Assembly (NCBI GenBank): GCA_963736855.1
Contig: CAVTQK010000015.1
Span: 96,001 to 160,000, forward strand
Direction: 5' to 3'
Length of the DNA stretch: 64,000 nucleotides
From: an uncultured delta proteobacterium
Lineage (GTDB): Bacteria; Desulfobacterota; Desulfobacteria; Desulfobacterales; UBA2156
Below, one piece after another: positions 2,183 to 58,737 of the stretch. Within the stretch, counting starts at the first letter, position 1, and every line of letters starts with the position of its first letter. The position numbers were made by a program, and so were the translations under genes. The notes beneath the pieces are model-generated. The model was not told the DNA's origin, did no database searches, and saw nothing but the letters and a program-made list of their open reading frames with translations.

Positions 2183-3538
2183 ATGGCGGAGCCAGCCGTT
2201 TTACAGGATCCGGCAAAAGAAAAAGAAGAAGAGAAAGTCGTCGATGAAGGGATCGACGTCGGCATTTCCAGACTTACGGAAGATAAAATCGAAAAGGTCA
2301 TCAACCAGGTTCTCAAAGGGGAGACCGGAGCGCGTCTTAAAACATATGTAAATACATGCATCCATTGTGGTCTTTGCAGCGAGGCATGTCATTATTACAT
2401 GTCCCACGACAAAGATCCCATTTGGTCCCCGGTGGGAAAGGTAAAACAGACCCTATGGGAGATGATCAAGAAAAAAGGTCGGGTAAGCCCCGAGTTCATC
2501 CGGAGGGCCGTCGAGATCGCACAGACCGAATGTAACCTTTGCCGTCGATGCATGCAATTTTGCCCTTTTGGAATCGACATCGCTTACTTAATCGCAACAG
2601 TCCGGAGGATTTGTCACAAGTTGGGGGTCACACCGCGATACATCCAGGACACGGCCCACAGTCACAGTGTCACCATGAACCAGATGTGGGTCAAGGGTGA
2701 TGAATGGCCGGATACCCTTCAATGGCAGGAAGAAGAAGCTCGGGGAGAGTTCCCAAAATTGAGGATTCCCCTGGATAAGGAAGGTGCTGACATCATGTAT
2801 TCGGTCATCGCACCGGAACCCAAGTTTCAGGCACAGCTCATTTACCAGGCTGCTGCCATCATGGAAGTCGCTGGTGTGAACTGGACAATGCCCTCCTCCA
2901 TGGGGTGGGATAACAGCGACATGGCCATGTTCACCGGGGATAACGAGATCATGGGACGGGTCAAGCGGGCACATTTCGAGACGGCCGTACGGCTTCGAGT
3001 GAAACGGATCGTCATGGGCGAATGCGGACACGCCTTCCGATCGGTTTACGATACCGGGAACCGCTGGCTCGGATGGAGCGAACCTCCTATTCCCATCGTC
3101 CATGCCATCGATTTTTACTACGAGCTGCTCAAGGACAATCGGATTCCCATTAAGGAAAAATTCAAAGAGCCGGTCACACTCCATGACCCGTGTAACGTGG
3201 TTCGGGGAGGCGGTCTGGCGGAAAAATCGCGATATGTGGCCCATGCCCTGTGTGAAACCGTCATCGAGATGTATCCGAACCGGGAATATAATTATTGCTG
3301 CTGTGCCGGCGGAGGAGTCATCAACTGCGGTCCCCCTTACAAGTTAAAGCGGGTAAAGAGCAACCGGGTAAAGGCAGAACAATTGATGGATGCCAGGACC
3401 CGGGGTGCAAAGGTGATCATTTCCCCCTGCCATAACTGTCATAGCGGGTTGAAAGACATTAAAGATTACTACGACCTCCACATGGACATCAAATTTTTCG
3501 GGGATATCATTTACAAGATCATGGAGAAACCCGAATGA
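2183..3538 (+). CDS. tmcB: Tmc complex Fe-S/CCG (HdrD/DsrK-like) subunit
   Basis: [11 protein letters not shown] and [12 protein letters not shown] ferredoxin motifs, ECGH, HDPC, CCCAGGG. Confidence 0.88.
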
Positions 3539-3555
3539 CTAGAAGGAGAGCCAAA

Positions 3556-3936
3556 ATGAAAAAAGGGTTGTTCATCATTGCCGGGGCTTTTTTTCTTTCT
3601 GCCATGATGTTACTCTCAGTACATTCTCAGGAAGATATGACGGAAGTGGATCGGAACGTTTTTACAAACCCGCAGAGACCGGCCGCGATGTTCAAGCATG
3701 ACGCGCACAATGAGAAAACCGGAATCGAGAACTGTAATGAGTGTCACCATGTTTACGAGGATGGAAAGATCGTGGAAGACCAGTCATCCGAAGACCAGAG
3801 GTGCTCGGATTGCCACGGCCTGAAGACGGAGGGGAATAAGCTTTCTCTAGTCAAGGCGTTCCATGTCAATTGCAAGGGGTGTCACGCAAAACAGAAAAAA
3901 GGACCGGTCATGTGCGGCGAGTGCCATGTTCGATAA
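3556..3936 (+). CDS. tmcA: Tetraheme cytochrome c3 TmcA
   Basis: Signal peptide plus four CxxCH motifs (CNECH, CSDCH, CKGCH, CGECH); start moved to ATG 3556 after AAGGAG. Confidence 0.9.
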
Positions 3937-3994
3937 CTCCGTCTTCCTAAGGCGGGAGTCTTGAAGCCAAAACCCATAGCGAAAGAGGTATGTC

Positions 3995-4345
3995 ATGGCG
4001 AAAAAAATATTAGTAATCGATGATGATCCAGTGATCGTGAAATATCTAATCAACCTCTTTGAAGACAACGGGTATGTCACTTGCACCGCTTCCAGCAGCA
4101 TGGAAGGGCTAGAGGTGGTTAAGAAGGAGAAACCGGATCTCATCACCCTGGATCTACAAATGCCCCAGGAATGGGGGCCTCGATTCTACCGAAAACTCAG
4201 ACAGGACAAAGGGCTGAAGGACACCCCGGTCATCGTCATCACGGGAATCGACGGCGACCATGCCATCAAAGATGCTGTCGCCTTTCTGAGCAAACCCTTT
4301 GATCCGGACAAGCTTCTCGGGATCGTCAAGCGGACCATCGGATAA
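3995..4345 (+). CDS. Single-domain response regulator (CheY/DivK-like)
   Basis: ILVIDDD, DLITLDLQMP and KP receiver motifs. Confidence 0.9.
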   Translation: MAKKILVIDDDPVIVKYLINLFEDNGYVTCTASSSMEGLEVVKKEKPDLITLDLQMPQEWGPRFYRKLRQDKGLKDTPVIVITGIDGDHAIKDAVAFLSKPFDPDKLLGIVKRTIG

Positions 4346-4357
4346 CCGCTCTTCTCG

Positions 4358-4397
4358 CCGCTGCAGGCGAGAACCATTTCGTCTGCAGCGGATTTTT
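4358..4397 (+). terminator. Probable intrinsic terminator
   Basis: Stem CCGCTGCAGGCGA / TCGTCTGCAGCGG followed by ATTTTT. Confidence 0.55.
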
Positions 4398-4567
4398 CGC
4401 GAGTCCTTCCCTAGTAAATGCAACCTTTTCTTCCCAAAACACCTCCAAAAGCCTGATTATTTTCGTGCATTTAGACTGTTTTTCTGGTAAAAGCTTCTAA
4501 TCTGCCTTCCGGCCCGATCCTGCGGGCGCTTACAGTCCATATCTTTTAAGATCTTAGGGCACAAACA

Positions 4568-6514
4568 ATGGATGAACGAATCCTTTTGGTAGATGACGAA
4601 GAGGGGATCCGAAAGGTTCTCGGGATTGCACTGGCCGACATTGGTTATACAGTTTTCACTGCCGAAGACGGGGATCAGGCCCTAGCTATTTTCCGGAGGG
4701 AAAGGCCGGAAATCGTACTGACCGACATCAAGATGCCGGGGATGGACGGTATTCAACTTCTCGAAGCCATTAAAAGCGAGTCCCCGGATACGGAGGTCAT
4801 CATGATCACCGGACACGGGGACATGGACCTTGCCATCAAGAGCCTCAAGCATGAAGCCACTGATTTTATCACCAAACCCATCAACGATGATGTTCTGGGG
4901 ATCGCTCTCAAGCGCGCCCACGAGCGGATTTCCATGAGAGGCCAGCTCCGGGCCTACACGGAAAACCTGGAGAATCTGGTCCGAGAAAAATCGGCCCGCC
5001 TGATGGAACTGGAGCGGCAAACGGCGGTGGGTCAGACGGTGGAAGGGCTCTCCGAAGCCATCCGGAGCATTGCCGGAGATCTGGATTCCAGACCCGGCGG
5101 CATCACCTATTTCAATGACATGCCCTGTTTTGTTTCCATTCACAACCGAGACCTGAAAGTGATTGCAACCAACGCACTGTATTCACGCCGCCTGGGAGAC
5201 CGTGTGGGAGGAAGCAGTTGGGAAATCTACACAGGGAAAAAAAATGAAATCGATGACTGCCCTGTTAAAAGAACCTTCCGGTCCGGTGTCGGCCAGCGGA
5301 GCCGTGAGACCGTGCGGTATCAGGCCGGGAAGGAAATGCCGGTCATCGTCCACACGGCGCCCATTCGCAACCGTGAAAACCAGGTGGAACTGGTAATAGA
5401 AATCGTCGCCGATGTGGGAGAAATCGAACGTCTACAGGAAGAGCTCCGGACTACCCGGCAGCGGTATCGACAGCTTTTCGACGAGGTCCCCTGCTATATT
5501 TCGGTTCAGGACCGGGAGCTTCGGGTTGTCGAGGCCAACCGGCGGTTCAAGGAAGATTTCGGAGAAGCCATCGGATCGCGCTGCCACCGAATCTATAAGC
5601 ACCGGGAAGATCCCTGCATGGATTGCCCGGTCGTTAAAACCTTCGAGGACGGCAACGCACATCAGTCCGAAATGGTAGTCACCTCTCGGACTGGAGATTT
5701 ATATAATGTCCTGATCTGGACCGCCCCCATCCGGAATGCCGCCGGAGAGATCGTTCAGGTTATGGAACTCCTCACCAACATCACCCAGATTCGCCAGCTC
5801 CAAGATCATTTATCCTCATTGGGGCTTCTCATCGGATCCATATCTCACGGCATTAAAGGTCTGCTTACCGGGCTCGACGGAGGGATGTACCTGGTTTCCT
5901 CCGGGTTTGACAAGGAAAATACGGTCCAGATCCAGGAAGGATGGGAGACGGTAAAGCTTATGGCGGACCGGATCCGAAGCATGGTGCTCAATATCCTGTA
6001 TTATGCCAAGAAGCGGAAGCTTAACTGGGAGAAAGTGGACGCGATCCGTTTCGCCAACGAAGTGGCCGCCACCGTCGAGTCAAAAATGGCGTCTCATCAT
6101 ATCCGGTTTGTGAAATCGTTTGCTCTGGACGTCGGACAGTTCGAGATAGATGTAGGGGTAGTTCACAGCGCTCTCATCAATATCCTGGAGAATGCGATGG
6201 ATGCGTGTCTTGCGGATCGGTCGGGCAAGAACTCCGAGGTTTGGTTCGTAGTGAATGCAGATATCGAAACCATCGTTTTCGAGGTGAAAGATAACGGAGC
6301 CGGAATGGATCCGGAGACAAGGGATAATCTTTTCACCCTGTTTTTTTCCACCAAAGGGAAAAGCGGGACCGGTTTGGGATTGTTTATCTCCAATAAGATC
6401 ATCGAGCAGCATGGAGGCAGGATTCAGGTTGAAAGCACTCCAGGAAGCGGTTCCTGTTTCCGGATCCACATGCCCAAAACACTCCCCGAGTCGGCCAAGA
6501 ATATGAATTCATAA
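4568..6514 (+). CDS. Hybrid receiver-PAS-PAS histidine kinase
   Basis: N-terminal receiver (LLVDDE, TDIKMPG), two PAS-like repeats with CPV, H-box SHGIK, HATPase N/G boxes (GTGLGL). Confidence 0.9.
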   Translation: MDERILLVDDEEGIRKVLGIALADIGYTVFTAEDGDQALAIFRRERPEIVLTDIKMPGMDGIQLLEAIKSESPDTEVIMITGHGDMDLAIKSLKHEATDFITKPINDDVLGIALKRAHERISMRGQLRAYTENLENLVREKSARLMELERQTAVGQTVEGLSEAIRSIAGDLDSRPGGITYFNDMPCFVSIHNRDLKVIATNALYSRRLGDRVGGSSWEIYTGKKNEIDDCPVKRTFRSGVGQRSRETVRYQAGKEMPVIVHTAPIRNRENQVELVIEIVADVGEIERLQEELRTTRQRYRQLFDEVPCYISVQDRELRVVEANRRFKEDFGEAIGSRCHRIYKHREDPCMDCPVVKTFEDGNAHQSEMVVTSRTGDLYNVLIWTAPIRNAAGEIVQVMELLTNITQIRQLQDHLSSLGLLIGSISHGIKGLLTGLDGGMYLVSSGFDKENTVQIQEGWETVKLMADRIRSMVLNILYYAKKRKLNWEKVDAIRFANEVAATVESKMASHHIRFVKSFALDVGQFEIDVGVVHSALINILENAMDACLADRSGKNSEVWFVVNADIETIVFEVKDNGAGMDPETRDNLFTLFFSTKGKSGTGLGLFISNKIIEQHGGRIQVESTPGSGSCFRIHMPKTLPESAKNMNS

Positions 6515-47417: not shown

Positions 47418-47753
47418 ATGAGTAATCTTTTTCAAGTCGCTTTTTTTACCTGCCTCCTGCTGTCTTCTTTTATAAGTGAAATCAAATTGTTAGATCAAAC
47501 GTGGACTCCAGGCGATCGGAAAACCCTCCGATATGGGGTTTATGTGAGCCGAATCGGGACGTTTGATCCGCACAAGGCGTCATCTTCTTCGGATCTTGTT
47601 ATCGCCGATTTGCTTTTCAACGGGCTTCTTCGGTATCACCCCGGCAACGCACCGAAAATCGATTCGGATTTGGCATCCGCCATACCGTACATGCAGATCA
47701 TCCACGGAAAATAAGTTTGGACGTTCAAGCTTAAAGAAGTGGTGGTGTTTCAT
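47418..47753 (+). pseudogene. Truncated family-5 ABC substrate-binding protein
   Basis: GTFDPH, LFNGLLRY, DLA, in-frame TAA at 47712, then VWTFKLK...FH; cut by the IS fragment. Confidence 0.7.
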
Positions 47754-48414
47754 GCACTTCCTGAACCGCTGAAAAACTGGAGGCCGTCCCCTCCTGTTCC
47801 ACAAAGAACATGGAGTAATGCTCACTGTTGGCATCGTCCATGGTGACGATCAGATCCCAGTAGCATCCCGGAACCCATTCATGCATGCTGCCGTCCTGAT
47901 GCAGCATCATCCCGACCACCGGGGCCCGCTGACGCCGTTTGCGATGTCGACCCCGAACCCGACACCTTATTAACCAGCCCGGCTTCCTGCAGCGTATTCT
48001 TCACCCAGCTGTAGGAACGCACACCCGCATGCATCCGACGATAAAAACCGTAAAAATGCTTGATGTTCCACCCCCCGTAACGCTCACGATAGGTTCCCAA
48101 AACCTGCATCACTTCATCCACCGGCGCACGGCGATGAGATACCTGAGTCAGACGTTTGTCCAATAAACCCTCCATCCCATCCTCTTCGTACCGGTAAATG
48201 TAACGACGAAACGTCCGCTCACAAACCCCCAACAACCGCGCCGCCTCCTGCTGCGTTAACCGATCCTCACCCCATCCAAAATACGCTTCCTCAAACCGCA
48301 TCATCCGAGCCTCCTGTAACCACTGTGTCCGCTTCATCAGTCCACCTCCTCGGTGACTTCATAAACCGGACAGTTTATGTGTTACAAACCCGGACAGTTT
48401 ATTTGTTCTCTACA
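47754..48414 (-). mobile_element. Partial ISNCY/IS481-like element (left end plus frameshifted, truncated transposase)
   Basis: MKRTQWLQE.RMMRF HTH N-terminus, MMLHQDGS.HEW, TMDDA; terminal TGTAGAGAAC with two CCGGACAGTTTAT repeats. Confidence 0.85.
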
Positions 48415-48746
48415 GGCGATACAATCCCGATTGACAGCGCATTCACCTTCGGATAATCGAAACCCATACGCCATGACAAATGTGTGTTCCCATATCTGGG
48501 GGTGCAAATGATGGTAAAACACAATTCATACCCATCCTTAGCACGTACGTGTAAAAGCGATTTCTTATCAATTAGATAAGGCGCCAACCGAAATGGCGAA
48601 AGAGGGCCCGAGCCCGGTTTACGGGAAATGGCCTACGGTGACGTGACCCACACCCGAAAATGAAAGGGCGATCTACCCGGGAGATGGGAGGGTATTGCTG
48701 GAAGATTCGACTGAATACTGATTTGCACTGAATTCATGTATCAAAT

Positions 48747-49913
48747 ATGACTGCATACACCTTTCCCCTTGAAAATAACCTTGTGGTGTTCCGGCCGGGA
48801 GTAAGAGGCCTATTCATTTTAAATGAAACCGCGGGTATGATCTGGAAAGGGCACGCTGATCGATTGCATCCCGGGCAAATTGCTTCTCAACTTGCAGAAC
48901 AATTTCATATTTCAAAAGAAAATGCTCAAAAGGATGTTGAACAGACAATTCGATTTTGGGCTGCTCATGGTCTCGTGGATGCAACATTGGGAAAAGCCTC
49001 CTTACAGCCAGGTACCCTGGATCATTCATCCAACCAAGCTTTCCCTCCGCCTCGAATTTCAGTAAAATCTTTTTTTTCTCAGCACTCATATTCGCTATTT
49101 GACAAATCCTTTCGAATCGGTTTTGAAACACTTGATTTGAAAAATGCCATTCACCCCCTGCTTTTTCAGTTTGAAACCGTTTCAGAGTCAACGACCAAAG
49201 TCCGGATCGATATTTTTTCAAATGAGGGCACCTATTTTGTCGCAAGAAACGGCAAGATCGTCGGGCAAAACGCCGCCATACATGAGACTGTCAGCCTGGT
49301 GCTAAAAGAACTCTTTAATATTCTTCACCCGGAAATGGAGTGGATGGCGGTCCTCCATGGAGCGGCTGTCGGAAGTTATTCTCATGGCATCTTGTTTCCA
49401 GGAGATGGGGGAAACGGAAAGTCCACACTGGTGGCCGCCCTTTCCAAATGCGGTTTCGGTTATCTCAACGACGACACCGTTCCTTTGGATGCGAACACGC
49501 AATATGCAGCCGCTCTTCCATTTAACATCTGCTTAAAGGAAGGAAGCTGGGCGACGTTACAATCTTATTATCCGGAAGTAGATTCCCTTCCGGTTTATGA
49601 ACGATATGGGAAACTGGTCCGTTATCTGCCAATTGAAAGAAACTCCGTTTGGAAAGACGTACGCTATTTCCCGGTTAAAACCGTGATTTTTCCTGCATAC
49701 CGAAAAGAAGGGGAAAACCGCCTCGAAAAGATTTCAAAAACCGAGGCGCTTAAACATTTTGTCCAATCCGGTATTTGGATTTCGCCGGACCCGGAACATG
49801 TGAGCCGGTTCATCGAGTGGATGAGATATCCTTCCTGTTACCGGCTTTCATATCATCTGCTTTCATGGGCGATTCAAAAAATCAGCGAGTTGGCAGACAA
49901 TGAAGCCGTTTAA
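48747..49913 (+). CDS. PqqD/RRE domain fused to an HPr-kinase-like P-loop domain
   Basis: N-terminal LNETA..IW...IA..LAE.F.I....A.KDV......GLV; C-terminal LHGAAV, GDGGNGKSTL, YLNDD. Confidence 0.8.
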   Translation: MTAYTFPLENNLVVFRPGVRGLFILNETAGMIWKGHADRLHPGQIASQLAEQFHISKENAQKDVEQTIRFWAAHGLVDATLGKASLQPGTLDHSSNQAFPPPRISVKSFFSQHSYSLFDKSFRIGFETLDLKNAIHPLLFQFETVSESTTKVRIDIFSNEGTYFVARNGKIVGQNAAIHETVSLVLKELFNILHPEMEWMAVLHGAAVGSYSHGILFPGDGGNGKSTLVAALSKCGFGYLNDDTVPLDANTQYAAALPFNICLKEGSWATLQSYYPEVDSLPVYERYGKLVRYLPIERNSVWKDVRYFPVKTVIFPAYRKEGENRLEKISKTEALKHFVQSGIWISPDPEHVSRFIEWMRYPSCYRLSYHLLSWAIQKISELADNEAV

Positions 49914-51042
49914 AGCCTTTCTTTTTTTGTGCCGATGTATTTCCTTTGAAGGTGATGACGCCAAACAGGCATCCCGCTTAAGACGAGAGATTGCCGCTGG
50001 AAATGCCGATTGGGAAATGATCATTAAAATAGCCGACCGTCATTTCGCTCTTCCGTTTTTATATCAAAGGCTTATAGAAAAAAATCTGCTCCAATATCTT
50101 CCCTCGAATAAAAGATTTTTTTTAAAAACTATATTCGAGCTTAATCTTTCCCGAAACCGGTTGCATAAGAAACAGGTCTTTGAAATCGCCCGGTTGTTCA
50201 ATGCCATCGATGTGGAGCCGTTGCTGTTAAAAGGGAGTGCAGCCCTTTTTTCAGGTCTCTATGCTTCCGATGGTGGAAGAATGATGAACGACCTGGATCT
50301 TCTTGTTCCTTACCCAAAACTCGAGTCTTGCATTCGGACCTTATTTGAATCCGGATATCGATTAATGCGAGATGAGGATCTGCCCGATCAATATCATGCT
50401 TATTTGCCGCTTGTGCACGAAAAGTATCTAACAAGGATTGAAATTCATAAGTATCCTATAAAGTTAAATTATAGTTCCATTTTAAATACAAATGAAATTT
50501 GGGAAAAATCAACTCCTTTGATATTTCAAAATGCCAGACTTCGAATTCCTGATTATCAGCATTTTATTTTACACAATATCATCCACAGTCAGCTTTCACA
50601 TAGGGGTAATAAAAAAAATAAAATCTATTTGTATCAGATGCTTGATTTGGTAATGCTAAGAAGAAATCTTGACAAAAAAATTGATTGGTATGACATAAAA
50701 AACCGATTTGAAAAAGCAGGGTATATACATCCTTTTTTGTCCTATTTGGTAATTGCTAGTAACCTTTTTAAACAACATGTGCCGGATCAAATTTGTTCAC
50801 GGCTCAAAGCTGCCATTATTTGGCATGTTTTCGAAGTTCTTTGCAATTATCCGATGGTAAACCATTTAAGAAATGCCATATATTCTTACATTGAAAATGT
50901 TAGAGTTGCATGTGGAGATCCGACAGAAAGAAGAATTTTGTTGAAAAAATTTTTAAAGACCAATACCTATAGGAAAAATATTATTTTATTTTTCAAAAAT
51001 ATTAATCATTCTTGTTTTACAAATAACAAACCATTTATTTGA
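49900..51042 (+). CDS. Nucleotidyltransferase family protein (NTP_transf_5-like)
   Basis: DWE.I...A..H, PLLLKG, R.MNDLDLLVP, IEIH; overlaps the upstream gene by 14 bp. Confidence 0.82.
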   Translation: MKPFKAFLFLCRCISFEGDDAKQASRLRREIAAGNADWEMIIKIADRHFALPFLYQRLIEKNLLQYLPSNKRFFLKTIFELNLSRNRLHKKQVFEIARLFNAIDVEPLLLKGSAALFSGLYASDGGRMMNDLDLLVPYPKLESCIRTLFESGYRLMRDEDLPDQYHAYLPLVHEKYLTRIEIHKYPIKLNYSSILNTNEIWEKSTPLIFQNARLRIPDYQHFILHNIIHSQLSHRGNKKNKIYLYQMLDLVMLRRNLDKKIDWYDIKNRFEKAGYIHPFLSYLVIASNLFKQHVPDQICSRLKAAIIWHVFEVLCNYPMVNHLRNAIYSYIENVRVACGDPTERRILLKKFLKTNTYRKNIILFFKNINHSCFTNNKPFI

Positions 51043-51061
51043 AAAATGAAAGGAAGGGAAA

Positions 51062-51250
51062 ATGGATCAGAAGTCTCAAAATAAAAATGATGTTGAAAAC
51101 ACGGTTAACAGCCTAATAGTAGACCAGGATCGACGGGCTATGCTCAAAACCATAGCTTATGCAGCTCCAATTACAATCATGCTTTTAACATCCGAATCGG
51201 CTTCACCAGCATCAAGACCACAGAACGGAGATGGTATCGGTCGTCCATAG
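51062..51250 (+). CDS. Putative RiPP precursor-like peptide; last 5 codons and stop derive from the IS3 end
   Basis: Purine-rich RBS; DRRAMLK..AYAAP...LL followed by Ser-rich TSESASPAS; third gene of the cassette. Confidence 0.6.
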   Translation: MDQKSQNKNDVENTVNSLIVDQDRRAMLKTIAYAAPITIMLLTSESASPASRPQNGDGIGRP

Positions 51251-52234
51251 TGGACACCAATTCATCATGCTGCTAGCCGCTGTTCATAGAATCGGCGGTC
51301 GAATGCTGTCGGTGAAAGATAGTCCAGCGTTTTCTGAGTCCTCTCTCTGTTGTAGAAAACTTCAATATATTCGGTTAGTTCCCTGATGGCCTGGAGTCGG
51401 GTAGCGAAACGTCGATGAAAGATCAGCTCGGTCTTAAGCGTTGCCCAGAAGCTCTCCATGGGGGCATTGTCATAGCAGTTCCCGATTCCGCTCATCGAAA
51501 CCGCCATTCCGAGGCGATGGAGCATCTCCCGGTATTCGTGAGAACAGTACTGACTTCACTTATCTGAGTGATGAAGCAGACCGGTACAGGGTCCTGAGGT
51601 CTCCACAGCCCGCATCAATGCGCTTAATCCGATGTGCCCCGATGCGCACTCCATTAGCCGACATATCCCGCTGCAACCGTTCCGGACCGCAAGTCTCCCG
51701 CGTACGCCTGTAGGCGGCCCGGATCTCAATTTCCAACCGTCCCTCTTCCCGCGCCCGCCGAGAAGGCCCACGGCTGCGCCTGGCATGAAATCCGCTGGCC
51801 GATACCCCCAATACCCGACACAACACCCCCAACGGATAGTCGAGTTGCATATCCTCCATCACCGCGTGCCGTGCAGCGACTCCTTGGCAAAGTACGCGGC
51901 CGCTTTTTTAGTATGTCTCGCTCCATCTTCACAAGGACCAGTTCCAGCTTCACCCGGGCCATCTCAACCTTCACCTCAGTCAAAGGCCTGTGCGTCGAAC
52001 CGATCCTCTCCAGCTTCCCGGCCTTGAAAGCCCGAACCCAGTTCTCCAAGGTCGATTTCGGAAGGGAAAGGCGCATGGCTCCCTCTCCAACCGATAGGCC
52101 CCCTTCGGTAACAAGACGAACCGCCTCTAGACGAAACTCTTTGCTGTATTTGCTGTATGGAACCTTTTCCATCCTGACACCTCCGTCTATCAATCATTGT
52201 AAACTTTAGTGTCCATTATTTTCAACCTATATCA
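51232..52234 (-). mobile_element. IS3-family element, degenerate (internal deletion in orfB)
   Basis: 26-bp imperfect IRs (19/26) TGATATAGGTTGAAAATAATGGACAC / TGGTATCGGTCGTCCATAGTGGACAC; orfA YSKEFRLEAV..ERDILKK; orfB LCRVLGVS, HSD, GNCYDNAPMESFW, YNRER. Confidence 0.9.
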
Positions 52235-52406
52235 CCCTCCCGCTGCGTTAACCGATCCTTACTCCATCCAAAATACGCTTCCTCAAACCGCATCATCCGA
52301 GCCTCCTGTAACCACTGTGTCCGCTTCATCAGTCCACCTCCTCGGTGACTTCATAAACCGGACAGTTTATGTGTTACAAACCCGGACAGTTTATTTGTTC
52401 TCTACA
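52235..52406 (-). mobile_element. Second copy of the ISNCY/IS481-like left end (direct repeat of ~48244-48414)
   Basis: Near-identical to the first copy including the TGTAGAGAAC terminus and transposase start; cut off at the IS3 boundary. Confidence 0.9.
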
Positions 52407-52529: not shown

Positions 52530-53807
52530 ATGTCGAAACTTATCCCACCACATGGCGGCAAGGGGCTCACCATCTGCCTGCTCGAAGGAGCGGCGCTGAA
52601 GGCGGAAAAGGAAAAGGCCAAAGGGCTCAAACAGGTTCAGGTTTCTCCACGGGTCAAGGGGGACCTCATCATGATCGGGATCGGGGGATTCAGCCCCCTG
52701 ACGGGATTTATGACCAAAGCCGACTGGAAGAGCGTCTGTGACAAGTTCCTGTTGAGCGATGGTACATTCTGGCCGGTTCCCGTCACCCTGGATGTCTCCA
52801 AGGCGGATGCGGACGCCATTAAAACCGGGCAAGAGATCGCCCTGTATGATCCCGAACGCAAGGAGATCATGGCCACCATGAAGGTCACCGAAAAGTTTGC
52901 GATGACCGAAGCCGACAAGCGGTATGAATGCGAAAAAATCTTCATGGGCGAAGGAACCAAAACGGCGCAAGAATTCTGGAAAGTCGCCGAGAAAGATCAT
53001 CCCGGCGTTCAGATGGTGATGAAGCAAAAAGAGTATAATCTCGCCGGACCGGTGAAGGTGCTCAGCGAAGCGGAATATCCGACCAAATATGCCGGCGTCT
53101 ACATGCGGCCTGCGGAATCTCGGAAGATCTTCGAGCAAAGAGGGTGGAGTGAGATTGCCGCTCTTCAGCTTCGAAACCCCATGCACCGCAGCCATGAATA
53201 CCTGTGCAAGATCGCCGTTGAGGTGTGCGACGGCGTATTCATTCATTCACTGGTCGGAAACCTGAAGGCCGGGGATATCCCCGCCGAAGTTCGGGTCAAA
53301 TGCATCGATGCGCTGGTGAAGAACTATTTTGTCGAAGATAAGGTGCTCCAGGGCGGATACCCTCTGGATATGCGATATGCCGGGCCCAGGGAAGCGCTGT
53401 TGCATTCCACATTCCGGCAGAATTACGGCTGCTCCCGGATGATCATAGGACGGGATCATGCAGGCGTGGGCGACTTCTACAGCATGTTCGAAGCCCAGAC
53501 CATTTTCGACAAGATTCCCAAGCCGAAGGAACCGGGTAAAGCCCTTTTGTGTACCCCCCTCAAGATTGACTGGACCTTTTACTGCGTGAAGTGCGACGGC
53601 ATGGCCTCCTTGAGAACCTGCCCGCATAAAAAAGAGGATCGTGTACTCCTTTCCGGAACTTTGCTCCGAAAGCTCCTTTCGGAAGGCGGCAAGGTGCCCG
53701 ATCACTTTGGACGGGATGAGGTACTGGTACTTCTTCGCGAATATTACGCAGGGCTGACTGAAAAAGTGGAGATCAAACTCCACGGCGCAGCCACCGGACA
53801 AAAGTAA
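52530..53807 (+). CDS. sat: Sulfate adenylyltransferase (dissimilatory)
   Basis: [45 protein letters not shown]. Confidence 0.97.
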
Positions 53808-53870
53808 AGATATTCAAATTCCGATAAGAAAAGGGGCCGCACAAAAAATACTCGTGCAGCCTCTTGAAAT

Positions 53871-53899
53871 AAAAAGGAGGCCATTCGGCCTCCTTTTTT
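53871..53899. terminator. Bidirectional terminator between convergent sat and qmoC
   Basis: AAAAAGGAGGCC-ATTC-GGCCTCCTTTTTT. Confidence 0.85.
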
Positions 53900-53918
53900 C
53901 ATGCTTTATGGCCGGCGC

Positions 53919-55073
53919 TTATTTCCTGCCTGAGTACTCGTTATAGGCCATGGCCACCGTGCGATAGACGATATGGGCGAGCTTGGAAAAAGGCGTATAG
54001 GCGAACAGACTCCATACACACATGAGATGAATGATATAAAGGAATACCGAAAGTCCTGCCAAACCTCCCAGTCGGGCCATCTGAGTGAGAAGTCCGGTTA
54101 GGCCCAGGAGTAAGACTAAAACCACAAGGTACCAATCCCAGTATCCGGACACCTGGTCCTTTTTGGAAAGCCGATTCTTAATCAGGAAGATCGAACCGAT
54201 GACCAGGGCTACCCCTCCGGCGTTGCCCAGCCATTTCACCGGATTGATTTGGGAATACGGACCTTCGATATGGAAGATCCACTCCGCGATGAAGAAACAG
54301 TTGGTCACGATAAACAGACCGATGAACCCAAAAAGAACCATCATGTGTGAGGTGGATCGTTCCCGGTTTTCGGTGCATTCGTTGAACTTTTCATGTTTCA
54401 GTATCGTGGGGATGACGGTCGCCAGGGCCTTGATAAAACCGATGGGATCGATTTTTGTTTTATCGGTTTTCCCTTCGGCAACGGCGTTTTGATGAATGTC
54501 TGTTAGAAACCGTTTCAGGCCGATGGCAAAAACACCTGCGGCAAAGGCCGCCGTCGGGAGCATGATGATGTCCACCAGGTAGTTGTTGATGTATTGGGCC
54601 TGCCAGACAAAGTCCCCTTCAGGGCCGAAGTTGAGCCAATGGATACCGAAGACTTTGAGAACCAGCCCCACTGCCAGGAAGATGGCGGCGGGAACGGCGA
54701 ATAGGATAGGAAGCATCTTCGGATCCCGGACCGCCTTGGCCAACGCTTTGGGGGTCGCATATTCCCCGATGGTGTAGGATCGAATGGCGGCCAGGACATC
54801 GCCCGGCTTGGCACCTCTCGGGCACAGGGTGGAGCAGTCTCCACAATTATGGCACAGCCAGATGTCCAGATCACGCACCAGCTTATCCTTCAGGCCCCAG
54901 GAAGCGGCGATCATTTCCTTTCGCGGAAAGGGCTTGTTGTCCGGCGAAATAGGGCAGGCCACCGAACATGTGGCGCATTGGAAGCATTTTTTCAAATCTT
55001 GCCCGCCCAGCTTGCCGACCTCTTTGATAAAATTCATGTCAGGCGCAATACGGTAAGTATTTGCCATTTCCAT
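53919..55073 (-). CDS. qmoC: Quinone-interacting membrane oxidoreductase subunit C
   Basis: CFQCATCSVACP and CHNCGDCSTLCP plus a TM cytochrome b domain (PFSKLAH). Confidence 0.95.
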   Translation of the reverse strand: MEMANTYRIAPDMNFIKEVGKLGGQDLKKCFQCATCSVACPISPDNKPFPRKEMIAASWGLKDKLVRDLDIWLCHNCGDCSTLCPRGAKPGDVLAAIRSYTIGEYATPKALAKAVRDPKMLPILFAVPAAIFLAVGLVLKVFGIHWLNFGPEGDFVWQAQYINNYLVDIIMLPTAAFAAGVFAIGLKRFLTDIHQNAVAEGKTDKTKIDPIGFIKALATVIPTILKHEKFNECTENRERSTSHMMVLFGFIGLFIVTNCFFIAEWIFHIEGPYSQINPVKWLGNAGGVALVIGSIFLIKNRLSKKDQVSGYWDWYLVVLVLLLGLTGLLTQMARLGGLAGLSVFLYIIHLMCVWSLFAYTPFSKLAHIVYRTVAMAYNEYSGRK

Positions 55074-55109
55074 ACCTCCTGTTTTATTTGGCGATTCCGC
55101 GCGGTTTTC

Positions 55110-57446
55110 TTAGAATCCCTTGAACGGGTTGGGGCCCATGGTTTCAATGGATTCCACAAAATCGTTGATGATTTTCGGCAGCTTGTCGTAATCATCAATG
55201 GCAACTTCGAATTGAGCGACACGTTCGGTTTCCAATGCCAGGCTGGCCAGGGCATCACCGATTTTTTTCATCCGGATATCCGCCAGTTCGCTCCCCTTGA
55301 TGAAATGGCATTGATAATCATCCCCGTACTTGCATCCTAAAAGGAAAACCCCGTCCATACCCTGGGAAAGGGCGTCCTTGATCCAGATGACGTTGACGGA
55401 TCCTAAACACCTGACCGGGATAAGCCGGACGTCTGCCGAATAGGAAAAACCATTGATCCCTGCGATATCCAGAGCGGGATATGCGTCATTCTCACATACC
55501 AGACCAAGAATCCGCATCGGAGGTTCGCTGTAATCATCTGCAGACGGCACGCGGATGGCTTTCACCATGGAGCCGATGCTGTCGATGTTGTAATCGGCGA
55601 AACCGATGATGCGTTCCGGGCAAGCTCCCATGCAGGTTCCGCATCGACGACATCGGGTGGGATTCGGCTTTGGAGTCCCTTTGGCGTCGTCATCCAGGGC
55701 GCCGAAGGGGCACTCCTGGGTGCATCGCTTGCATTGAGTACATCGTTGGAAGAAAAAGTCTGGGAATGTCATGTCCCCGGATCGCGGATGTACCGAGACA
55801 CCCCGGTTGCTCGATTCAAGGCATTGAATCGCCTTTAAAGCCGCTCCTGTGGCGTCTTCCATCGATTCTTCCACGGTAAGTGCCCGACGGATGGCGCCGG
55901 CCGCATAGATGCCGGTGCGCTGCGTCTCATAGGGAAAACAGATGTAGTTGGAATCCGCATAGTCGTTGAATATGGCGTTGTCCCGGAACCCGGGGCCCTG
56001 ACGATAGGCCAGGTTTACTACCGGATCGTCTTTGGTGACCGGAACCATACCGGTACCCAGGACCACCATGTCGGCGGAGACCTCCACCTTTTCCCCCAGA
56101 AGGGTATTTTCTGCGGTCACAATAAGGTTGCCGCCGTTTTTTGAGACTTTCACCACTTCTCCCTTGGTCAAGAAAATTCCCGGATCCTGCTGGATGCTTT
56201 TGTAAAAACCCTCCGAAAGGCCGGGGGTGCGCATGTGCTGATAGAAGATAAAAGCTTTTCCGTCATCCGGGTAATCCTCGCGGACGTATTTGGCCTGTTT
56301 GAGAGCCACCAGGCTGGTCACGGATCCCGCATAGTCGAAATCCGAGTCGTCCCCTTTACCCGGGCTCTGGATAAAGACCACGGATTTGGCGGATTTGCCG
56401 TCTGAGGGTCGAACGACCTTGCCATGCTTGGCGATTTTTTCAAACTGGGCGTTGGTGACTACGTCGGGGATCTCGCCAAAGCCAAGATGGGTCAGCTCGT
56501 CCTTTGCCGGCTGATAGGGTCGCCATCCGGCGGCAAGGATCACGGCGCCGAATTTTTCGCCGTTGGGGTCAAAGGTCAGGATGTCCTGTCTGCCCTGGTT
56601 GTACTCCATGTACTTGGCATGCAGCTGCTCGGCATCCAACTCCTTTCCCTTATCGTCCACCCTCATCTCCGGAGGTAGGGGGAAGGGGACATCGAACTCG
56701 ATTTTTTCTCCGGGCTTTTTAAGTGTCACCGTGAAATTACCCGGCTCTCCGGCGATTCGAGCTACCATGGTTTCAGTCCGGACAGTGATAAGGGGGTTGT
56801 CCGAAACCTCTTGAATCTTCTTTTCCACAATAGGCGGAATCAGGTTTTCATAGGGATATCCCGTGGGAAGCTGCTTGCGCCAATGACCGGCATGCCCCCC
56901 CAATTGTTGCTCCTTTTCCACGATGGTGACTTCATAGCCGGCGGCAGCCGCATCCAGGGCTGCCGACATGCCGGTGATCCCGCCGCCGATAACCAGAATC
57001 TTACGGGTAAAGTTCTCGAGTTTAGAGGGTTCGGGGAGCGTGACCTTTTTTACGCGGGCCATCCCCATTTTCACATAGTCTTCGGCCATCATCTGGACCC
57101 GGTCAAATTTATCCGAATCGGCTTTTTCTTCTTCCGTGAGTGCCGGAAAGACCTTTCGGGGATGTGACCATACTACGCCTTCCCTCAGATTAACCCGATC
57201 CACGATGCAGCCGGGAAAACGGAAGATATCAAAATTAACCCGACGGGAGCAGGCGGCAATCACCAGCGTGTTGATTCCGGAAGTGATTTCGCTTTTGAGC
57301 AGGGCAACCCCATCTTGGCCGCAAAGAAAAGGGTGTGTCTTGTAAGGAAACTTTTCGGCCTGGGGCACCTTACTGAGTGCTTCAATATTCAGGGCATCCC
57401 CGATGCCGCACCCCGTGCAGATATAGACGCCATATTTTTTATCCAT
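55110..57446 (-). CDS. qmoB: QmoB (HdrA-like FAD/Fe-S with MvhD-like C-terminus)
   Basis: GGGITG, CTQCKRCTQECP, CRRCGTCMGACP, CENDAYP, VRCLG, CHF. Confidence 0.95.
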   Translation of the reverse strand: MDKKYGVYICTGCGIGDALNIEALSKVPQAEKFPYKTHPFLCGQDGVALLKSEITSGINTLVIAACSRRVNFDIFRFPGCIVDRVNLREGVVWSHPRKVFPALTEEEKADSDKFDRVQMMAEDYVKMGMARVKKVTLPEPSKLENFTRKILVIGGGITGMSAALDAAAAGYEVTIVEKEQQLGGHAGHWRKQLPTGYPYENLIPPIVEKKIQEVSDNPLITVRTETMVARIAGEPGNFTVTLKKPGEKIEFDVPFPLPPEMRVDDKGKELDAEQLHAKYMEYNQGRQDILTFDPNGEKFGAVILAAGWRPYQPAKDELTHLGFGEIPDVVTNAQFEKIAKHGKVVRPSDGKSAKSVVFIQSPGKGDDSDFDYAGSVTSLVALKQAKYVREDYPDDGKAFIFYQHMRTPGLSEGFYKSIQQDPGIFLTKGEVVKVSKNGGNLIVTAENTLLGEKVEVSADMVVLGTGMVPVTKDDPVVNLAYRQGPGFRDNAIFNDYADSNYICFPYETQRTGIYAAGAIRRALTVEESMEDATGAALKAIQCLESSNRGVSVHPRSGDMTFPDFFFQRCTQCKRCTQECPFGALDDDAKGTPKPNPTRCRRCGTCMGACPERIIGFADYNIDSIGSMVKAIRVPSADDYSEPPMRILGLVCENDAYPALDIAGINGFSYSADVRLIPVRCLGSVNVIWIKDALSQGMDGVFLLGCKYGDDYQCHFIKGSELADIRMKKIGDALASLALETERVAQFEVAIDDYDKLPKIINDFVESIETMGPNPFKGF

Positions 57447-57459
57447 GAATAACCTCCTC

Positions 57460-58737
57460 CTACTTTCTCACCAGGGTTTGGATCGCTTTCAGAGCCATGC
57501 CGGTTGCGTTCTGGTTCGATGAGACGACATCGGCCGGCTTGTTCGCACATCCTGCCGCGAACATGCCTCCCTTGGCGAAATCGTTGATGACAAATCCATC
57601 TTCGGTATATTTCAAGTCGGCGGGGAGTTTGGTTTGGGCGGCGGTGGGCTGCATACCGGTGGCCAGGACCACCATTTCCACGGTCTGCCTGATCTTTTCT
57701 CCCGTGACGGCGTTTTCTGCCACCACGGTGATGTTCTGGGTTGCCGGATCCTCGCCGACTTCCGCGACTTTTCCCTTGATGAAGTGAACCTTATCGTCTT
57801 CCTTGATTTTTTTATAAAAGCGCTCGTACCGGTATCCGGGCGCCCTCAGATCGATGTAAAAAATATAGACGTGGGCCTCTGGATTCCGTTCCCGGATGTA
57901 GGTGGTCTGCTTCAGAGATGCCATGCAGCAGATGTAGGAACAATAGGGAAGATGATTTTCATCCCGGGATCCGGCGCACTGGACAAAGGCGATGCTTTGA
58001 GGAACCTTTTTGTCCGAAGGTCTAAGGATTTGTCCTTTGGTCGGCCCGTTGTGCGCTGCCAGGCGTTCCATCATCATATTGGTGATGATGTTGGGATACC
58101 GTCCGAACCCGAGATTGTCGATCTTACCGGCATCGTAAGGTTCCCAGCCCGTGGCCCAGACGATGGCGCCCACATTCAACGTCAATGTCTTAGGTTTCAT
58201 GTCGAGATCAACGGCATTGTATTTGCAGGCCGCCTTGCACCGTTTGGCGTCTTCGGTGCCGATGATTTGGGGAGAAAGAACATACCGTGCGGGAAAGGCC
58301 ATTTCGAAAGGAAGATATGCACCTTTATGCCGGTCCATGCCGAAATTGTAGTCATTGGAAATTTCTGTTTCACAAGCCTTGGCACAGTCCCCGCAACAGG
58401 TGCAATTTTCGTTGATATAGCGGGGATTCAGCTTCACCGTGACATCGTAGTTACCTGGAACGCCGACTACCTTCTCGATCTCCGCCAGGGTGAAGACCTT
58501 GATGCCGGGGTTGTCTTTAATTCTCCTGAAATTGATTTCGAGGCCGCAGGTGGGCGGACACAGCTTGGGGAAATATTGATTCAGCTGCGTCACTCTCCCC
58601 CCAACATAGGGGTTCTTTTCAACGAGAAACACCTCGTACCCCACCTCGGCGGCTTCCAGAGTGGTCGTCAGGCCGCTGATGCCGCCTCCCACGACCAGAA
58701 TGCTTCCGCTTCCCGGGGCTCCTTTGTTGTCTGTCAT
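57460..58737 (-). CDS. qmoA: QmoA (HdrA-like flavoprotein)
   Basis: GGGISG, YFPKLCPPTCG, QCAGSRD, CSYICC. Confidence 0.95.
   Translation of the reverse strand: MTDNKGAPGSGSILVVGGGISGLTTTLEAAEVGYEVFLVEKNPYVGGRVTQLNQYFPKLCPPTCGLEINFRRIKDNPGIKVFTLAEIEKVVGVPGNYDVTVKLNPRYINENCTCCGDCAKACETEISNDYNFGMDRHKGAYLPFEMAFPARYVLSPQIIGTEDAKRCKAACKYNAVDLDMKPKTLTLNVGAIVWATGWEPYDAGKIDNLGFGRYPNIITNMMMERLAAHNGPTKGQILRPSDKKVPQSIAFVQCAGSRDENHLPYCSYICCMASLKQTTYIRERNPEAHVYIFYIDLRAPGYRYERFYKKIKEDDKVHFIKGKVAEVGEDPATQNITVVAENAVTGEKIRQTVEMVVLATGMQPTAAQTKLPADLKYTEDGFVINDFAKGGMFAAGCANKPADVVSSNQNATGMALKAIQTLVRK

Follow-up and report, generated by a model that had tools for sequence, protein, structure and literature searches.

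Among the described systems closest to the locus reported here, the pathway for linear polyphosphorylated peptides (LPPs) of Bacillota, encoded by lppA-K-B-S-D-N, combines an RRE, an HprK-like kinase and an NTP transferase without a cyclase (Popov et al. 2026; PMC13381572). According to the accessible text of that report, LPP clusters are located in capsule loci, deletion of lppN has no effect, and the mapped phospho-Ser3 of LppA lies 15 steps from Pro-13; neither 'Tat' nor 'twin-arginine' occurs in this text (PMC13381572). The bsf system of Bradymonas sediminis (BsfK, BsfB1, BsfN) likewise employs an RRE-assisted kinase that acts on a Ser near the start of the core, and the accessible part of its description reports that residues H148, G163, K169, S170, D186 and D187 of BsfK matter and that the mapped phospho-Ser3 of BsfA lies 16 steps from Pro-14 (PMC10368454). 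In the paeninodin/pseudomycoidin pair (PadeK, and PsmK with PsmN), the kinases carry His-Lys-Asp-Asp and modify lasso precursors at their C-terminal Ser, while PsmN, a nucleotidyltransferase-like enzyme, is needed for the attachment of one or two hexoses to phosphoserine, as far as the accessible excerpts of the sources describe it (PMC8498205, PMC9266682). A further pair, HPr-rel-A, joins a kinase (TIGR04352) to a PqqD-like chaperone (TIGR04353).

The locus lies in a window of 64,000 nucleotides, the whole stretch of DNA that was analysed, and comprises three ORFs, all on the plus strand: 48747-49913 (388 aa), 49900-51042 (380 aa) and 51062-51250 (62 aa). The first two overlap by 14 bp and the last two are separated by a 19-bp gap, which supplies exact coordinates for the three tightly coupled, co-oriented ORFs of the preliminary description; all of the motifs quoted there were found in these ORFs. 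The AT-rich character that it assigned to this DNA holds strongly for the nucleotidyltransferase gene, with a G+C content of 0.347 against 0.528 for the contig, whereas the kinase fusion (0.455) and the peptide gene (0.418) are not strongly AT-rich. Promoter and terminator scans gave counts at or below chance (3 versus 6.5 and 2 versus 3.2, respectively), an Rfam scan returned one chance hit, and atlas look-ups returned only clusters without names.

The first gene (48747..49913, plus strand) encodes a PqqD-like RRE (aa 13-77) fused to an HprK-like kinase, an assignment based on Pfam, NCBIfam and profile matches to solved structures. PqqD (PF05402) is matched at aa 13-77 with 40.3 bits, above the cut-off of 23.4, and the profile of the fusion matches the solved RREs TbiB1, TfuB1, 9x90 and 9x8z, which include lasso and LPP RREs, as well as HPr kinases. 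The proposal of a PqqD/RRE N-terminus on a P-loop kinase, which had been staked on an RRE fold within the first ~80 aa, is thus borne out. The catalytic residues of the kinase (H204, G219, K225, S226, D242 and D243) are spaced as the six listed above for BsfK, and H204, K225 and D242 are present in all 26 aligned kinase rows. HPr-rel-A is the best NCBIfam match of all 26 aligned kinases; the window kinase reaches E 3e-17 with HprK_rel_A (TIGR04352), yet its 62.7 bits fall short of the cut-off of 200, and TIGR04353 is matched by two of the 26 and not by the window protein. The family is large: at E up to 1e-30 the kinase profile collects 1,409 clusters at 50% identity, and the full length of the fusion is covered in most of the best 150 of these. 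A triple fusion of RRE, kinase and nucleotidyltransferase also exists as a single protein (P0136).

The second gene (49900..51042, plus strand) encodes an NTP_transf_5 nucleotidyltransferase-like protein, as had been proposed (PF14907, E 5e-37), for which the AlphaFold2 model has a mean pLDDT of 82. Its residues K111-G112, R127, D131, D133, E181 and H183 are kept in 17 of 17 aligned rows, and its profile found no match among solved structures.

Related loci were collected with alignments, a search with single proteins having returned no loci. The nucleotidyltransferase alignment yielded 44 genome loci and the kinase alignment 11 metagenome loci, and 22 of these 55 were kept because they have the RRE–kinase fusion (21 full-length, the other broken by a frameshift). 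When 400 genomes from the phylum and 400 from the order were searched with profiles, each set gave 10 matches at E 1e-25; 12 full-length same-phylum loci were added from these, giving 34 fusion loci in total. In the 12 loci picked by the kinase alone, the nucleotidyltransferase is full in nine, a fragment in one and missing in two, which are short contigs, and the peptide is present in 10. Named hosts include Methylococcales, Competibacter, Thiodictyon, Bradyrhizobium, Bryobacteraceae and Desulfomonilaceae. The three genes therefore form a real, conserved, self-standing and cyclase-free cassette that is found in several Gram-negative phyla. The earlier tie to a sulfate reducer is not upheld: the cassette is not special to sulfate reducers. 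The window itself carries, at 52530-58737, genes that resemble sat and qmoABC of dissimilatory sulfate reduction.

A six-frame search found neither a lasso B2 peptidase nor an asparagine-synthetase-like cyclase in the window or in any of the 34 fusion loci (362 kb, 19 of the loci being at least 10 kb), the positive controls of this search being training sequences. The preliminary description had seen no lasso cyclase in the window and had named the constant presence of lasso B/C genes in homologous loci as the sign of a decayed lasso cluster; on the evidence of sequence, the cassette is not a lasso remnant. A broader form of that idea, in which a lasso or radical-SAM cluster would have left only its tailoring genes here, its core enzymes having been deleted or acting from another part of the genome, is highly improbable and is already weakened by the empty result across the 34 loci. 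PF13471 is also unmatched in 15 of 24 host genomes, the B2 profile has no match in the window's genome, and cores of 1-12 residues do not have the length that a lasso requires. What speaks for it is that DNA downstream of the peptide gene was probably deleted at an insertion sequence, that radical SAM genes adjoin two of the 12 same-phylum loci, and that a second locus of the same genome, on contig C13 at 45-54 kb (L001 9091-18365), holds an intact NTP_transf_5 gene and an asparagine-synthetase-like gene, together with two radical SAM ORFs and with HprK-like and PqqD genes that are frameshifted. That second locus is without a peptide of the cassette family, and its frameshifts may reflect decay or assembly errors.

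The surroundings of the cassette vary among the related loci. Gene calling gave 230 neighbours in 42 loci; 116 of them and one kinase were scanned with Pfam, with preference for loci with fused kinases, and all 77 proteins of the 12 same-phylum loci were scanned as well; these 117 and 77 proteins are unrelated neighbours with mostly housekeeping functions, and at E 1e-8 none of them belongs to a signal-peptidase family. Occasional neighbours are glycosyltransferases (L020, L031, L099) and radical SAM genes (L099, L106, and L038 outside the 34). An ABC exporter with a membrane domain occurs in one scanned locus (L018), about 5 kb away, and none adjoins the window cassette. A fixed fourth gene, whether exporter, peptidase, radical SAM enzyme or glycosyltransferase, was considered and rejected, as none recurs beyond a few loci.

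Compared with the LPP pathway, the cassette likewise has an RRE, an HprK-like kinase with catalytic His-Lys-Asp-Asp, an NTP transferase gene (PF14907), a YxxP leader and a Ser 15 residues past the Pro, and no cyclase. However, LPP clusters have a discrete RRE gene, whereas the RRE of the cassette is fused to the kinase; LppS, the SpI-like leader peptidase, and the MsbA-like exporter LppD have no counterpart in the cassette, which is flanked by insertion sequences; and of the LPP leader YxxPxVLxHQxIxFETxxS the cassette leader shares just YxxP and the Ser at Pro+15, being instead of a twin-arginine, hydrophobic and AxA type. The hosts of the cassette are Gram-negative, whereas LPPs are called restricted to Bacillota in the accessible text (PMC13381572). 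On account of these differences, the cassette is not classed as an LPP member, and the best reading is that of a Gram-negative LPP-like system in which export by the host Tat system and a host signal peptidase likely replace dedicated genes. With bsf, it shares the same spacing of six catalytic residues, a nucleotidyltransferase and a Gram-negative host, but bsf also encodes a cyclase (C), a peptidase (B2) and an exporter (D). With the paeninodin/pseudomycoidin pair, it shares the His-Lys-Asp-Asp kinase and the nucleotidyltransferase-like enzyme, whereas in the cassette family the Ser mostly lies within the peptide, and a lasso ring is absent. The suggestion of an uncharacterised RiPP class thus stands only in part. 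A search of the open-access literature found just lasso/LPP or unrelated papers and no account of the cassette, although the LPP supplementary tables may list Gram-negative relatives; yet a cyclase-free pathway of RRE, HprK and NTP transferase was described in 2026 (PMC13381572), so the cassette is a variant and not a wholly uncharacterised class.

The peptide defines a family of its own. An iterated profile finds 41 peptides in 29 of the 34 fusion loci, one further hit without RR having been dropped, while four of the five loci without a peptide are contigs of 3.4-6.0 kb and the fifth has its kinase at the contig edge. A conserved RR..L...YxxP peptide beside homologous gene pairs, on whose presence the preliminary description had made its reading depend, is therefore a regular companion of the two enzymes. 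The layout consists of a variable N-terminus, RR, [YFW]xxP (36 of 41 peptides), a hydrophobic run, K/R, AxA and a short core containing Ser. With the cleavage site picked by rule, a basic residue precedes it in 34 of 37 peptides, AxA is present in 30 of 37, and Ser occurs within the core in 36 of 37, the median core length being 11 aa; L020 and L030 have cores of just one or two residues, and one core is without Ser.

Distances from the Pro were counted in 24 loci, each represented by a single peptide; two near-duplicates, a truncated peptide and two peptides lacking the Pro were omitted. The end of AxA falls at Pro+12 to +14 in 18 of the 24 (shuffle mean 2.0). Ser occurs at Pro+15 in 10 loci (shuffle mean 3.0; reached by 6 of 10000 shuffles) and at Pro+15 or +16 in 13 (shuffle mean 5.6; 7 of 10000), a register that was spotted after viewing the data, among related loci that are not independent. 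Against this register, 14 of the 24 loci have no Ser at Pro+15, and Ser at Pro+8 is equally frequent (10 of 24).

The third gene of the window belongs to this family. Its native precursor part, aa 1-57 (51062..51231, plus strand), is delimited by the family alignment, the position counts and the complex model, and a purine-rich, ribosome-binding-like stretch lies upstream of the ORF. A profile of the family peptides (30 rows, including the window peptide) finds the window peptide as its sole match in the genome, at E 3e-13. The landmarks are R24-R25, Y33-A-A-P36, a hydrophobic stretch at 37-43 and the candidate acceptor Ser51, which lies 15 residues past Pro36; Ser44 occupies the Pro+8 position.

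The structure prediction of the RRE with the peptide that had been proposed earlier was carried out, and the model of the window peptide with the RRE–kinase scores 0.73, whereas the best of three controls scores 0.00. This mark is reached by 116 of 157 solved pairs and by 2 of 215 mismatched pairs; at least 78% of contacts are common to the runs, and the partner has a pLDDT of at least 59. The modelled interface places peptide residues 31-49 on RRE strand 20-30 and helix 63-76 and on kinase residues 183-202 and 335-346, with residues 37-41 forming a strand on the RRE, while R24-R25 and Ser51 lie outside the confident interface. It is accordingly the model that predicts binding of the YxxP leader to the RRE; since similar RRE–leader complexes have been solved, its score may show likeness and not binding.

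From these elements, a course of events can be proposed. The RRE–kinase fusion is predicted to dock the peptide by its YxxP leader; by analogy with BsfK and LppK, the kinase would likely phosphorylate the Ser just behind the leader (Ser51), and the nucleotidyltransferase, by analogy with PsmN, would then likely add a sugar or a nucleotide to the phosphate. Judging from the anatomy of the leader, host Tat export and signal peptidase could release a short linear product. The whole reading, an RRE-guided, cyclase-free, LPP-like system with Ser phosphorylation, a likely second modification and putative Tat export with signal peptidase release, is considered on balance somewhat probable. Its core, an RRE-guided peptide system with kinase and nucleotidyltransferase, had already been proposed, and is supported by the domains, the conserved peptide and the lack of lasso B2 and C in the 34 loci.

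The export step concerns a point absent from the earlier account. The Tat signal consensus comprises RR, a hydrophobic region, a basic residue and AxA, and the family leader, in its sequence, is built like such a twin-arginine export signal. RRE binding does not explain the twin arginines, as these lie outside the confident interface. TatC is present in 24 of 24 host genomes and also in 11 of 14 control genomes. Matches of the family to Tat models are weak (TIGR01409 in 3 and TIGR02811 in 6 of 30 rows, six of the 30 being paralogs of one locus), and the window peptide, which has RR and a hydrophobic stretch with an atypical cleavage site, gives no hit to Tat models at E up to 1. YxxP as a generic feature of Tat signals was rejected, as it occurs in none of nine Tat-like long ORFs of the window's genome, a small control. 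A Tat-leader step is plausible from the leader anatomy. In its full form, the proposal is that the RiPP leader serves both as a Tat signal peptide and as an RRE docking site, the peptide being modified in the cytoplasm by the RRE–kinase and then handed to Tat and a housekeeping signal peptidase, so that secretion of phospho(glyco)peptides, in some hosts as small as one modified Ser, would need just three genes; this is put forward tentatively, as a possibility that falls short of an even chance. If true, it would be a RiPP leader doubling as a Tat signal, of which no case was found in the open-access literature.

The alternative to this dual role accepts the same phosphorylation and takes the Tat likeness as a relic or by-product, with the hydrophobic stretch acting solely as an RRE-binding strand and the peptide remaining uncleaved in the cell or membrane as a phospho-Ser carrier or sugar-chain primer. 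The modelled strand at residues 37-41 and the weak Tat matches would fit such a carrier, as would the glycosyltransferases or polysaccharide deacetylase fusion in L020, L031 and L099 and the capsule-locus setting of LPP clusters given in the accessible text (PMC13381572). A released product is hard to square with the very short cores of L020 and L030 and with the core that has no Ser, and the former keep this alternative alive. It nevertheless appears rather unlikely, given that RR, the basic residue and a constant AxA spacing recur from phylum to phylum, that RR lies outside the modelled interface and that the neighbours of most loci are unrelated housekeeping genes, with no glycosyltransferase among them.

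The window copy, as distinct from the family, bears signs of damage. An internally deleted IS3-family element (51232..52234, minus strand), identified by NF033516 matches and by an end sequence equal to that of a copy on contig C6, starts inside codon 57 and provides the final five residues of the peptide and its stop (51248-51250); this start is placed by the contig C6 copy, which has identical start bases with another flank. The element lacks ~266 bp found in the contig C6 copy, and no target duplication is present, which suggests loss of DNA downstream of the peptide. It is abutted by the truncated end of a second ISNCY element (52236..52406, minus strand), 98% identical over 171 nt to 48244-48414. 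The 62-aa precursor of the preliminary description is therefore more than a chance ORF, as the family profile match indicates, but its last five residues and stop are IS-derived; likewise, the suspicion of a remnant cut by the IS3 is right in that the element cuts inside the peptide gene, whereas the relatives show that no further genes are needed. The native end of the peptide was not recovered from contigs of seven runs, one of which ends at 51225 while another passes 51240 with just 9 IS3 bases, too few for bridging. The cleavage region also departs from the family: no basic residue precedes the site, A-S-P stands at the AxA register, and the sole fitting site is S-P-A before Ser51. With this region and an IS-derived tail, the window copy may be impaired.

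It could even be that, in a functional family, the window copy is a passenger in decay that arrived between insertion sequences and forms no mature product, the IS3 having cut its precursor and its cleavage site having been lost. This is improbable: neither enzyme gene is damaged and every conserved residue is kept, the native part still includes Ser51 and six residues beyond it (the median core being 11), and a related contig differs from the window peptide at aa 19-57 by four silent sites and by one change that brings it closer to the consensus, in addition to four replacement sites at aa 6-15; of these nine differences, seven recur in another run from the same study, at a depth under 5. A passenger would fit the start of the IS3 in codon 57, which together with the missing target duplication and the abutting truncated ISNCY element points to a deletion, as well as the atypical cleavage region, the low G+C content and the distribution of the cassette, which was found in none of five same-genus and none of 11 same-family genomes.

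Should the LPP-like reading be right, the cassette would be the smallest LPP-like system in view, with one peptide and two enzymes, and would offer a direct way to probe the activity of NTP_transf_5 enzymes. In the accessible parts of the sources, PsmN is known in vivo only, LppN is inactive in a heterologous host and BsfN is without a characterised activity (PMC8498205, PMC9266682, PMC13381572, PMC10368454). The intact loci L097, L019 or L031 would be better suited to such studies than the window copy.

Several further features were observed in and around the loci. On the left flank, outside the cassette, lie a broken ISNCY-family transposase gene and element end (47731..48414, minus strand), with NF033594 matches on ORFs 47879-48337 and 47731-47919. 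Between this element and the cassette, BLAST within the genome revealed a dispersed, degenerate repeat of ~160 nt (48417..48573, no strand assigned): the segment 48401-48746 gives 48 BLAST rows, self included, and the repeat, ~160-190 nt long with some 45 other genome matches, contains TTGACA, mostly ends in CTTATCA and corresponds to no Rfam family. A conserved domain of ~150 aa without a Pfam match is found near the cassette in seven of the 34 loci (L022, L024, L035, L039, L041, L043 and L062, five of which built its profile) and is absent from the window's genome; it is mostly C-terminal in large, secreted-looking proteins, two of which carry FG-GAP repeats, and the bsf cluster is likewise bordered by an FG-GAP protein in the accessible description (PMC10368454). 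A polysaccharide deacetylase domain is fused ahead of the RRE–kinase in L020 (5193-7001) and in P0060; in L020, a GT2 gene follows the deacetylase fusion and the peptide core is a single Asn. In L031, eight tandem precursor genes (3502-5523, minus strand) with identical leaders and varied Gly-Ser cores form an array that is divergent from the kinase and stands beside a glycosyltransferase.
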